Origin: Eledone cirrhosa
Lineage: Eukaryota
Direction: 5' to 3'
Assembly: GCA_964016885.1 (NCBI GenBank)
Contig: CAXHJY010000028.1
Span: 1 to 64,000 of the forward strand
Length of the DNA: 64,000 nucleotides
The notes under the pieces were generated by a model. It had not been told where the DNA came from, did not search any database, and saw nothing but the letters and a program-made list of their open reading frames with translations. Every line of letters starts with the position of its first letter. The first letter of the stretch is position 1. The translations under genes and the position numbers were made by a program. Positions 47,601 through 52,744 of this stretch are shown in pieces.

Positions 47601-50600
47601 CACTTTCCCAAGATGTCATGCCTTGGGATTAAACCTGCCACCTGAAGTTAATGCATCGTTAATTTATCAGTTGAACTAGTTGCTAAGTCTGACTTACTTA
47701 AGCTCTTAGTAGTAATGAGTATAAAAGCTGTCTTCATGAACAGTTAAAGAGTGTACTCAGTTGCAGATGAAATACCAATATGAGTTGAAATTAGTCTGGC
47801 TGCTTCCTCTTTTTGTATTCATGAAGTCAATGAAGATATTTTGTATAAAAACAAATACTTACATCTGTCAATACGTATGGTAATTTATTACTAGAGCTGA
47901 ATAGTATTTAAAATAGTTTGAACAGAAAATGTATTCTTTATAAAGTGTTGCACAAGAATATATAATCTTTATATATAAATTCTTTAAAAGAAAACCTCTA
48001 GATGGTGCCATAGCAATACCAACATACAATTCAAAAATTTACTTTACATATTTTATGAAAATTGGTTGACTTGCTAAAAGTCCCTGTTATGAGAAACATA
48101 TAAAAAGTATTAAATTAAGAATTAGGTAATCTTTTGTACGTTGCTGAATATTAGTTAATTTTACAGGGATTGCTTTTTAATTATCTAGTTCAACTGATGT
48201 ATTAGTTTTTTTACACTGTGGTTAAATAGTTGTAACATTCAATTACTATTCAGTATTAGAATTAATACAGAAATAATTGGAATATATCAAGTTTCACTGT
48301 AGGAATATATATGTTTTACATATTGTGGTATTCAGTATGTTTTAAATGTAAATATGTTTTCATTATATCAAACAGACTGACACACCAACACACATATTTG
48401 CATATATATATATATATATATATATATATATATATATATATATATATATATATATATATATACTAAAATAACAGATTAAAGTTTAAGCAAAGATTCTTTG
48501 CTTAAACTTTAATCTGTTATTTTAATAAATATTTGATATATATTTGATATATATTTATCCTCATCGAGCCCTCTTTGGATTTTAGTCTTCACATTTATTT
48601 TTATTACTATATATATATATATATATATATATATATATATATATATATATATATATATATATATATATATATATATATATATATATATATATATGTGTGT
48701 GTGTGTGTGTGTATATATATATGCACAAACCCACACACATTCAACCATCTTACGTTAAAATAGATCAGTAAAACAGAAATAAAAGGACTGTTAACTCAAT
48801 GTCACAACTAAAAGTTATGACATTGAGTTAACAGTTCTTTTAATTCTCTGTTTTACTGATCTATTTTAGCATTACAAAATTAATTTCCATTTGTTGAATA
48901 AAATATTTGCTAGACCTGAGCAGTTTATTGCATTTATGAATATGTAAGATAATTGTTTTTGCAAATATATTAAAATACTAACATTGTTTGTATCAATATA
49001 TTTATGGACAGCTGCATTTCAAATTTTGCGTAAAAAGGATACACTTTCTGTAAATATTTATACCACTATTTCAAATTATGTGAAGACAAATTATTAAAGA
49101 TAATTTTTTGAATGGAAAATTGAATATTTTTTATGTTAATGTCACAATTTAGTATTCTTTTTAATTTCTTATTTGTGATTGAAATATTAAAATATTTTAG
49201 GAAACTTCGAATCTGCCTGTCATATCTTTTACATTATTATTTCCAGTCATAAGATAAGAAATTCCTCGATAAATAAAATAAAATCATATTTCAATAACAT
49301 TAAGATCAGTAAATATATTTCATTGGTTTTTAATCTTATGTAAATCTAATGTAACAGAAATAACTGCTTCTTCTCAATAACCTCTAGCTCCAAACTAGAC
49401 AACACATACTCTGCTTAAGAGTGTGAGGCAATTCCACGACACAGGCAATGTTTATTTTGGTAGTCCCCCACCAAAGCTGTTCACCAACCAACAACTAACT
49501 ACCCTGCCCTCAACTATCAATAGAATCATACATGCTACTCAGCTGTCATTAATCAATGCTAAAAATATCATTTTTCATTACACTCTGTCAAATGACAGAG
49601 AGGGAATAAATGAAACTCTGAGATCCTTTGAAAAAATGTATAAGAAATGTAACAGTAACAGGAAGCTCAGAGTAGCAAAGAAGCAGAACCACAGTTTCAA
49701 TTAAATGGATGCATATAAATATGTATATATATATATATATATTCTATTCTATTCTAAGGCGGGTAAAATTCCCGAGATCCATGGACGAGTTCTCTCCAGC
49801 AGTCTCTGTCCCTCATTATCACTGCCATGTCCTGCGTCTCCAACAGACCAGTGTCTGTCCTTAGGGCATCAACATACGTTAACCTTGGTCTTCCTCTTCT
49901 AGTGTAAATAAATGGAAACTATATTTATAAAAGCATATTTATTCTAGTATATATATTTCAAGGGTGCTGAAACTTTGATATGCTCTCATCAGATAAAATA
50001 CAAAGTTTGTTTTATAAATATTGACATAACCAGGAAGAAGAACTTAACGGTTCAAGTTTTTCCTAATATCATTAAATATTATACTCCAGAAAACTTGTTG
50101 AGTGCTTTGAATCAGTTATAAACATTTATATTTGTTGAATTACTTATATATATATATATATATATATATCATCACCATCACCACTGTTTAACGTCCATTT
50201 CCCACATTGGTAGGGGTTAGATGAGTTGTCCTGTTGTGAGACAATTCAGATCAAGTGACTGTGCCTAACTCATACAGAACTCACATACATATGTATATAA
50301 AGATATGTATGTGTTCATAGGCATAGATGGTTTTGTGTTTTAGTCAGTTTCAGTTGCACAAGAGCTGTTCAGCAGTAAGAGAGCCCATGAAATAAATGAT
50401 CAAACATTTGGAAGAGAGTAGTGAAATATATGACTTGTCATTTATTAGTATATTGAAAAGCTTTTCATATATTGCTATATTAAACTTTGTTTGGAATGTA
50501 AAAAAAGGTTCTTAAATAAAATTTATGATGGAAGGTTTTAAATTAAATCTACATACTTTTAAAGTAGATAGATTTCTATAAAAACAAAACCTTTAGACAT

Positions 50601-52744
50601 TTTCAGATAAAAGATTTTCTTATGGAATTTATATAAATAAGAGTAAACTTTGTCTACCCTCTATTCTTTAACAAATGATATGAGAAAAATAAAAGAATAT
50701 AATCAAAATAGAAACTCTTAATAATAATTTCCAATTAACAGAAAATGATGCTTTAAAGTAAATGGATTTCTTAGTTTAGACCAATTTGCATAACATAAAC
50801 CTTGTTTGGTATATGACTATGATTTGAAATTTTTCAGCGGTATTCTAAATAAAGATATTGAATTCTTGAAATATTTTACATCATTACTTTATTCTAATTT
50901 GTGAAGACATCTATATATATTATTAGGGTAGATATTTCAGTTATAATGTCTCACTATGAATTGAGCATTTCTTTTCAACTGGTATAAACTATTTATTACA
51001 TCATAAACTAATTAATTCAGCTCGCCATAAAGATTGGCGGTGGATTGGCAGTATCGGTAGAGGGTCGGACGCCATGCTTTGTTGCATAGAGTTACGGCCC
51101 TTGCCAATCTGAGTTCAAATCCCGCCGAGGTTAACTTTGCCTTTCATCCTTACAGGGTCGATAAAATAAAGTACCAGTAATGCACTGGGTAATTGCTGGC
51201 CTTGTACCAAACGTAGAAACAATTATATTACATATATAGAGAAGAGAAGCTTCTTCAGTTGTGTTAAAGACAAAACAACCTTTCTAGTGCTGGTGATAAC
51301 ATACACCCAGTAGACTCTGTAAAGTGATTGGTATTAGGAAGGTCTTTCAGACAGAAACTTTGCCAGAATGGAATGTATCTTAGCAAGACATGGTTCCTTG
51401 ACCTGGCAACCTATCTACTTCTAGTGCCTTGATAAAATACATGCAGTACACTTAGTAAAGTGGTTGGTATTGAGAAGGACAATCAGCTTTAGAAACTGCT
51501 AAAAATGGAATATATAAATGAGACATAGTAATTGTTTCTACTTTTGACACAAGGCCAACAATTACCAAAGTACATTACTGGTACTTTATTTTATCGACCC
51601 CGTATGGATGAAAGGCAAGTAATAACTCTGAATAAGAATTAGCTCAGACCATAATGAGCTGTCCATTGCTTTTGCAATCTTTGTTTCAATAACTTGTGAC
51701 TGTCACTAATATATTCAATCTGTTAAAATTCTAGCCTTCCATTATCCAGTTTTGACTGAAGCCATAACTGGTTCAACTGTTTACAGGGCCAGTTTAATCA
51801 CATAGATATACGTCTGTGATTTAATTGTGCTTATAATAGTTTTGATATATTTATTCTTCAACTGATTTTTTGTTGATGAAACAATAGATTTATATAATAA
51901 TAATAATAATAATGAAATTATTGTGTACAGTGCTCAGGTGCACTACAACTCATCAAAGGTGCATGTATAGTACATAGAATATTATACACTATATATATAT
52001 ATTAGCACTAAAACATTAGTTTACTCTACTTCAGAATTTATTTTTTAATATGTATTTTGATGACTAACTATATATATATATTTATTAAAATAACAGATTA
52101 AAGTTTAAGCAAAGAATCGCTGCTTTCACCCTTAAGATCTTGTTAAGGGTGAAAGCAGCGATTCTTTGCTTAAACTTTAATCTGTTATTTTAATAAATAT
52201 TTGCTCTATGGTTCTTATATATTTGATATATATTTTCCTCATCGAGCCCTCTTTGGATTTTAGTCTTCACATTTATTATTATTACTATATTATTAGGGCG
52301 GTGAATTGGCAGTATCGGTAGAGGGTTGGACGCCATGCTTTCTAGCATAGTTACTTCCCTTTACGGTCTGGGTTCAAATCCCGTTGAGGTTAACTTTGCT
52401 TTTCATCCTTACAGGGTCGATAAAATAAAGTACCAGTAATGTACTGGGTAATTGCTGGCCTTGTGCCAAAAGTAGAAACAATTATTATTACTATATATAT
52501 ATATAGAAGTAGTTCCACAACAGTTAATTCACCATTTCCGAGAACAATTTGTTTCACCTTAGATGGATCATCAGCTCGGTTTAAATGAGATAATACGGAA
52601 AAGGAAAACAATTATACGAATACACATGCACAGAAGAAGTTCTTCACAAAAGGGAGTCAACTCATGTTAGATTTAGATTGATGCTCGGGAGGTGACTGCA
52701 AAAGTTCAGAATACAATAGATTATTCATGATATTTGGTCTAGAG

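Follow-up and report, generated by a model that had tools for sequence, protein, structure and literature searches.

Three short palindromic repeats in a 64,000-nucleotide (nt) stretch of the Eledone cirrhosa genome (assembly GCA_964016885.1, contig CAXHJY010000028.1, positions 1 to 64,000 of the forward strand; hereafter the window, meaning the whole stretch analysed) are identified here, by sequence comparison, as 3' stubs of an abundant Hydra-type Penelope-like element (PLE) inserted in (TA)n. We propose that insertions of this element are probably completed by end-joining of two target-primed complementary DNAs (cDNAs), one started from each of two fixed sites near the 3' end of the element (S and L), often after a short local snap-back. 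The proposal builds on the identity of the element and its open reading frame (ORF), the fixed S and L ends, the presence of one S and one L end per insertion, the variable joints between the arms, the source shared by both arms, and a stop at unit position 3091. Unit coordinates throughout are those of the natural full-length unit L133 (3,252 nt), in which S is position 3165 and L position 3252; L-numbers such as L044 or L133 are labels of loci fetched from the E. cirrhosa genome.

Identity and abundance of the parent element

All three window copies match the last 150 nt of unit L133, with E-values ranging from 3e-68 to 2e-6. The family is numerous in this AT-rich, 3.0-Gb genome, with one 28-mer of the repeat body having 15,936 exact matches genome-wide. 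No RNA data set was listed for the 3' end of the element. Long copies traced upstream led to an element with the organization pseudo-long terminal repeat (pLTR), ORF, pLTR. A search with the ORF start gave 1,804 candidates, 40 of which were scored (98-100% identity, and 98-99% for the best full-length matches), and 20 loci fetched from these 40 matches form our full-length set. Two of the 20 (L140 and L142) retain an intact ORF of 708-709 amino acids. In 19 of the 20, the unit is preceded by a part of the 3' unit end of varying length, that is, by a partial tandem pLTR, and L145 contains two full units. Across L127-L146, the 5' pLTRs measure about 180 to 1,500 nt and none begins at unit 3091, a pattern that fits tandem, circular or jumped templates. 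Separately, arms at L045, L050, L095 and L135 contain big internal jumps (e.g. unit 107 to 3008, 117 to 2987 and 2286 to 2992), which suggests either template jumps of the reverse transcriptase (RT) or later deletions.

The encoded protein carries RWR at residue 37 (with R for the K of RWK), DKT at 115 and the RT motif YRDD, as well as a C-terminal GIY-YIG-like motif (Y..YIG) at 585-600 of 709, together with CDLC (CxxC) at 662 and CKH (CxH) at 690. The CxCx5C linker is intact (CNCRNRADC) in most of the full-length copies inspected and mutated in the L142 protein. In Craig et al. (2021, PMC8557442), RW(K/R), DKT, the CxCx5C linker, CxxC with CxH, and insertion in (TA)n are features that mark the Hydra clade. 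The CCHH motif, whose absence from the endonuclease is a further criterion of that clade, was assessed by eye. In the Atlas, the protein's neighbours were clusters without a name at 0.99 and, at 0.96-0.97, clusters carrying GIY-YIG or RVT_1; a Pfam search with the ORF and with pieces of it returned no relevant family, and a PDB sequence search with the protein gave no matches at E-values up to 5. The combination of RT and GIY-YIG in one ORF, tandem pLTRs and the Atlas neighbours bears out the PLE membership put forward in a preliminary description of the window. Further PLE-like ORFs were seen in neighbouring sequence at L031 (about 4230-6040), L129 (5956-7887) and L134 (1186-2379); Hydra-like motifs mark two of these, and the remaining one has an RT of YVDD type.

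Two fixed outer ends and a one-sided tail

The outer ends of the arms lie at S or at L, sites 87 nt apart that are both AT-rich and both abut (TA)n; we refer to the 87 nt between them as the tail, to arms ending at S as tail-less (S) arms, and to arms ending at L as tailed (L) arms. Genome-wide, 12,937 exact junctions of the S end to TA stand beside 13,056 read-throughs into the tail. To examine how the ends are paired, we sampled roughly the first 90 of 100 tail matches listed, in order along one chromosome, which yielded 92 anchors. An adjacent inverted piece was found at 57 of these 92 sites, and in 45 of the 57 it ends directly at S (unit 3160-3167). Eight further cases resolve to S+L through neighbouring loci or by inspection, so that the 57 two-armed insertions comprise 53 S+L pairs, one L+L pair and three unassigned cases, and 53 of the 57 have a tail on one end only. 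No S+S pair was observed among 30 S-anchored loci, in several of which the partner lay outside the view. The fixed outer boundary that the preliminary description had proposed to look for is therefore present, at two alternative positions. Tail-to-tail pairs separated by only a short (TA)n were also observed at L112 (3462-3740), L178 and L179; these probably reflect a second insertion into the repeat beside the first.

The three window copies

Against the unit, the repeats in the regions 13205-13400, 48494-48610 and 52171-52290 of the window (copies 1, 2 and 3, respectively) resolve into the following parts:

13098..13163, minus strand: inverted tail-less (S) arm of copy 1, unit 3099-3167, sister subfamily, 75% identity
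13164..13191, plus strand: junction insert of copy 1, about 29 nt matching the flank about 900 nt upstream
12253..12285, plus strand: likely donor of the copy 1 insert in the host flank, 30 of 33 letters identical to the insert
13193..13398, plus strand: direct tailed (L) arm of copy 1, unit 3114-3246
48403..48462, no strand: (TA)n target left of copy 2
48464..48493, minus strand: inverted S arm of copy 2, inner end at unit 3128, outer end missing S by a few letters
48492..48609, plus strand: direct L arm of copy 2, unit 3125-3252
48608..48694, no strand: (TA)n target right of copy 2
52078..52135, minus strand: inverted S arm of copy 3, unit 3108-3165, preceded by a short TA run
52134..52200, plus strand: direct arm of copy 3 up to site S, unit 3099-3165
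52201..52287, plus strand: tail of copy 3 between S and L, 87 nt, in the direct arm only

The window sequence thus confirms that the same body occurs at three places, each time behind its own reverse complement. In copy 2, the near-absence of a loop is equally confirmed: the arms overlap by 2 nt (48492-48493) and turn at unit 3128/3125, and the tail has an 11-nt gap relative to copy 3. Copy 3 does have a turn point of its own (unit 3108/3099, with an arm overlap of 2 nt), but its apparent loop is element sequence; its direct arm spans 52134-52287, and the segment 52134..52200 holds most of a hammerhead-like motif discussed below (stems II and III and the 3' strand of stem I). The 70-nt spacer ascribed to copy 1 does not form a loop: its first part continues the inverted arm, as far as about 13163, and the copy of flanking DNA comes next. 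A 20-mer from this insert occurs at only two places in the 3.0-Gb genome, the insert itself and 12253-12285. Copy 1 belongs to a sister subfamily, and a piece of a different repeat, at about 13277-13345, splits its tail.

Inner joints and arm depth

Joint statistics refer to 48 simple two-armed cases, nine more complex ones being excluded. The two arms meet directly in 28 of the 48 and with inserts of 1-32 nt in the other 20. The 28 insert-free joints have a mean microhomology of 2.14 nt against 0.69 nt in the shuffled null, a value reached in none of 2,000 shuffles (1.74 nt after dropping one 13-nt case); the micro-complementarity at turn points for which the preliminary description had suggested a search is thus in excess. 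Over 28 overlapping arm pairs, 8 discordant common variants were observed where 117 were expected from other copies, and rare variants are common to both arms in several pairs. Because the arms of one copy share source variants and the inner joint varies, with microhomology, each inversion must have been made anew, and the earlier claim that the palindrome is produced at each insertion, and not inherited, holds. Turn points do vary as described, yet they are not free, since inner ends pile up at unit 3085-3099 and 3150-3210.

Inner ends at unit 3085-3099 were recorded for 13 of 48 S arms and 6 of 48 L arms, and nine of those 13 S arms face an L arm starting at 3125 or later. The inner end of the L arm falls within unit 3150-3210, around S, in 27 of 48 cases. 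With respect to depth, the S arm is deeper in 36 cases, the L arm in nine, and three are symmetric; in 20 of the 48 the arms have no sequence in common, the tailed arm lying wholly inside the tail, and there is therefore no palindrome at all. The S-deeper fraction shows no trend with divergence (14/18 versus 22/30).

Among 19 junction inserts of at least 6 nt, most have no match to the unit above the shuffled 95th percentile, and those of L044 and L109 clearly match it. In L044 the order is S arm, a 32-nt snap-back, and a jump to the tail. Snap-back, which had been invoked to explain the whole palindrome, is accordingly seen as short extensions, in L044 and in the additions at unit 3091 described next, but not as the source of an entire second arm.

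A run-off mark at unit 3091 and the adjoining hammerhead-like motif

A hard inner stop at unit 3091 was found on both arm types. Genome-wide, 2,616 exact matches break off from the unit immediately 5' of A3091, compared with 802 that do so a single base further on. By hand counts over the first 100 matches listed in each set, the next letter at the 3091 break is G in 52 of 100, compared with 20 of 100 in the control (Fisher p = 4e-6). Thirty such loci were fetched, of which 27 are true junctions and three are substitutions. Among 22 arms in which the partner arm does not explain the letter, 19 have G (17 of 20 once one duplicate and one miscall are removed), and this extra G occurs on S arms as well as on L arms. 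A subfamily substitution as its origin was considered and rejected, as 0 of 19 G loci read through.

The additions at 3091 form a ladder, G, TG, CTG and TCTG, that is the reverse complement of adjacent element sequence. They may be a copy of an RNA cap, a short snap-back, or both; whichever their origin, they mark a free cDNA 3' end. A spliced leader is a further possible source, given that PMC4209133 places the end of an intron in helix I in D. virilis; snap-back is the simpler account, because variable letters precede the G and those that recur are the reverse complement of the adjacent element. Marked S arms lie beside L arms consisting of tail only in L201, L205, L211, L221 and L224, and both arms bear the mark in L202, L217 and L226. 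As S arms bear this run-off mark, they are first strands in their own right, and a second cDNA must have supplied the tail.

Helix I of a hammerhead-like motif begins at A3091, a base that lies in what we take to be an initiator-like context. The motif has a type I three-stem layout at unit 3091-3141, seen in 163 arms, with stems mostly paired and loops that differ between subfamilies; at core position 4, A stands in place of U in 160 of the 163. We describe it as hammerhead-like with a non-canonical core, and the corresponding ribozyme as putative. Rfam returned no hammerhead match in the window or in three loci, folding z-scores of the motif were not significant, and inner ends do not pile up at the predicted self-cleavage site (3136/3137), with one at 3136 among the 48. 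An antisense hammerhead reading was dropped, its stem III not being kept in the sister subfamily.

A proposed two-primer model and its alternatives

In the model that we regard as probable, the GIY-YIG domain would nick both strands of (TA)n, and RNA from a single source would be primed by the two nicked 3' ends, at L by one of them and at S by its counterpart. The L-primed copy would often stall where S-priming began, and either cDNA could terminate at any point or run off the RNA 5' end at 3091. Snap-back of free cDNA 3' ends over 1 to about 30 nt, or copying of DNA close by, as may have happened in window copy 1, would be frequent, and microhomology-mediated joining with fill-in would complete the insertion. 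A palindrome would arise only where the two cDNAs chance to overlap. More tentatively, and in our estimate a little short of an even prospect, we entertain that such twin priming is programmed, being the normal integration of endonuclease-bearing (EN+) PLEs: a dimeric RT-endonuclease would prime each nicked strand at a different edge of the tail, and the short copies that run off the RNA 5' end at hammerhead helix I would be PLE analogues of strong-stop DNA. If so, the inverted pLTR and the one-sided tail would be two faces of one reaction.

Several points weigh against the two-primer model. All of the evidence comes from fixed genomic copies, in which later deletion at the palindrome centre could add asymmetry, and a fast loss of long palindromes might hide an age trend. 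Depth is evenly split where the arms clearly overlap (21 cases: S deeper in 9, L deeper in 9 and 3 symmetric), as palindrome-centre deletion also predicts, and 35 of the 92 tail-anchored sites have no inverted arm detectable by BLAST. None of 16 arms in the full-length set (20 fetched loci) stops at 3091, so 3091 is not the sole template 5' end and longer, tandem, circular or jumped templates are needed; moreover, the extra G may stem from a cap or from the first base of a snap-back. One RNA and two RNAs from the same locus are indistinguishable, and target-site duplications are unreadable because the flanks are themselves (TA)n. Lastly, PMC11167929 saw no strand difference in the start site in vitro, and so offers no biochemical basis for the rule of one S and one L end.

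The principal alternative, which we judge unlikely, is that truncation of a single L-primed cDNA is followed by snap-back and self-copying out to S, with the asymmetric and non-overlapping cases arising from later deletion in unstable palindromes. Perfect or near-perfect hairpins do exist (window copies 2 and 3, and the three symmetric and nine L-deeper cases among the 48), the arms share source variants, microhomology is in excess, junctions of such a kind are described for R2 in PMC11331408, and deletion within hairpins could have left the solo tails and solo arms. Folding of one truncated cDNA, as the preliminary description had it, nevertheless implies a deeper tailed arm, found in only nine of 48 cases against 36 with a deeper tail-less arm and 20 without overlap. 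Further, S arms stop at 3085-3099 regardless of the partner (13/48, nine with an L arm from 3125 or later), kilobase S arms adjoin L arms shorter than 170 nt in L086 and L047, and asymmetry shows no trend with divergence. Most pointedly, S arms have a 3091 mark of their own, including in the five loci with tail-only L arms; a second strand copied off the L cDNA cannot start in this way and deletion cannot add the mark. Single-cDNA snap-back is thus not enough, because the tail-less arm is deeper, the arms often do not overlap, and tail-less arms bear their own run-off mark.

Self-priming on antisense RNA, proposed in PMC3846280 from junction palindromes in rotifer PLEs, would yield the head-to-head structure in another way. 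It predicts a deeper tail-less arm and allows non-overlap, in agreement with 36 and 20 of the 48 cases, respectively. We still consider it improbable, and less plausible than single-cDNA snap-back, as it gives neither the nine L-deeper cases, nor solo arms of either type ending at 3091, nor the accumulation of L-arm ends at S. Neither does it lead one to expect that both arm types bear a run-off mark at a fixed sense-strand 5' position, and the in vitro PLE reaction in PMC11167929 used a sense template.

The copies being internal deletion derivatives of one ancestral terminal inverted repeat (TIR) element, either a miniature inverted-repeat transposable element (MITE) or a foldback DNA transposon, has a negligible probability and, despite the MITE-like appearance of a fixed outer boundary, TA flanks and short palindromes, we count it as excluded by the full-length structure and the arm-pair comparison: the parent has tandem pLTRs and encodes RT plus GIY-YIG, with no transposase seen in the unit; the two ends differ, just one of them carrying the tail; and the arms within a copy resemble each other more than they resemble those of other copies. 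The preliminary description was right to reject an inherited TIR.

Other repeats in the window and at the fetched loci

A second hammerhead-bearing repeat family, with a canonical core, forms TA-flanked palindromes at 55900-56113 and 10652-10788 of the window. The former combines a short arm with a tailed arm and turns at the 5' edge of helix I, a layout like that of the PLE stubs, and relatives were seen in L103, L128, L133, L136 and L154. A 166-nt palindrome at 11993-12158, with a canonical hammerhead-like core, is likely the stub of a third PLE-type family. At least eight more short palindromes, most of them beside (TA)n, occur at 11125-11486, 11511-11707, 14530-14667, 29664-29746, 30099-30201, 35694-35775, 48756-48868 and 61401-61481; they may be PLE stubs or MITEs. 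Tandem hammerhead-bearing, retrozyme-like repeats with periods of about 470, 310 and 540-1,090 nt are present at L124, L207, L074 and L115.

The window also contains tandem arrays at 5904-8553 (48-nt unit, 55 copies), 46886-47605 (74-nt, 9.7 copies), 58800-59163 (60-nt, 6.1 copies) and 38167-38469 (30-nt, 10.1 copies). Two long frames on the minus strand at 39907-41719 resemble what we assume to be a hAT-type transposase with a zinc finger. Fragments like the RT of long interspersed elements, RTE-type by eye, lie at 62537-63751 (minus strand), 54134-54970 (plus) and 30649-31104 (plus). The common short interspersed element (SINE) of this genome presumably resembles octopus SINEs.

Comparison with known systems

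How PLEs finish insertion, and why they have inverted pLTRs with a one-sided tail, are questions stated to be open in PMC8557442, PMC11167929 and PMC3846280. The element agrees with the Hydra clade (PMC8557442) in having one ORF with RT and C-terminal GIY-YIG and the same motif set, as well as (TA)n insertion, partial tandems, a 5'-truncated copy in inverted orientation and a tail at one end. It differs in unit length (3.25 kb, against Hydra units generally under 3 kb), in its 87-nt tail (30-40 bp being given for other PLEs), in the A for U at position 4 of the hammerhead core, and in its tens of thousands of end fragments, whereas that paper found a small number of further families; its supplement may already list this one. 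The repeat annotation of an octopus genome in PMC13282606 counts Penelope-like elements and, in the part available, does not discuss their joints; PMC4209133 and a preprint (10.64898/2026.07.22.740005) served as background only.

The Penelope families of the rotifer Adineta vaga (Arkhipova et al. 2013, PMC3846280) likewise have a shorter head-to-head inverted pLTR, a one-sided tail and palindromes at the joints. They were read as antisense self-priming from few copies, whereas the 48 joints analysed here, with their non-overlapping arms and run-off marks, favour two sense-templated cDNAs. In the in vitro target-primed reverse transcription of Poseidon_Ac (Frangieh et al. 2024, PMC11167929), the purified PLE protein cuts and extends both target strands, the target is AT-rich, and uncleaved hammerhead RNA is the main substrate; as proposed for our element, two internal RT start sites bound the tail. 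The two-primer model agrees with the behaviour of this enzyme, the one PLE enzyme examined in vitro. Poseidon_Ac belongs to another clade, however, and the main text of the study ties the two start sites neither to the two ends of an insertion nor to the inverted copy, and calls the later integration steps unvalidated.

Arm geometry and run-off marks fit a scheme like the twin or dual priming of L1 (PMC2837659, PMC4245944), in which both target ends prime and the cDNAs are joined head to head with little microhomology. There, the second site is a chance internal match and the process a side path, whereas the PLE here has a fixed second site and over half of the sampled insertions are two-armed. 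L1 twin priming was reportedly first set out in a study by Ostertag and Kazazian. For R2 (PMC11331408), joining is preceded by priming of the cDNA 3' end, either on its own sequence or on DNA nearby, much as in L044 and window copy 1; R2 snap-back is nonetheless a low-frequency class at one end and yields no second fixed, target-anchored arm.

A literature search, whose coverage left out most subscription papers and the 2005-2006 PLE reviews, found no two-primer model of PLE insertion. This kind of PLE and the inverted 5' copy with a one-sided tail are already published anatomy (PMC3846280, PMC8557442); what the present family contributes is the 87-nt tail, the altered hammerhead core and the junction series that bears on mechanism. 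For annotators, the lesson is that short TA-flanked palindromes in genomes of this kind can be retroelement stubs and not MITEs. A young PLE family with thousands of independent joints, and with two intact ORFs among 20 loci, turns the question of mechanism into one of counts, and the predictions drawn from its joints are testable in the existing in vitro system.

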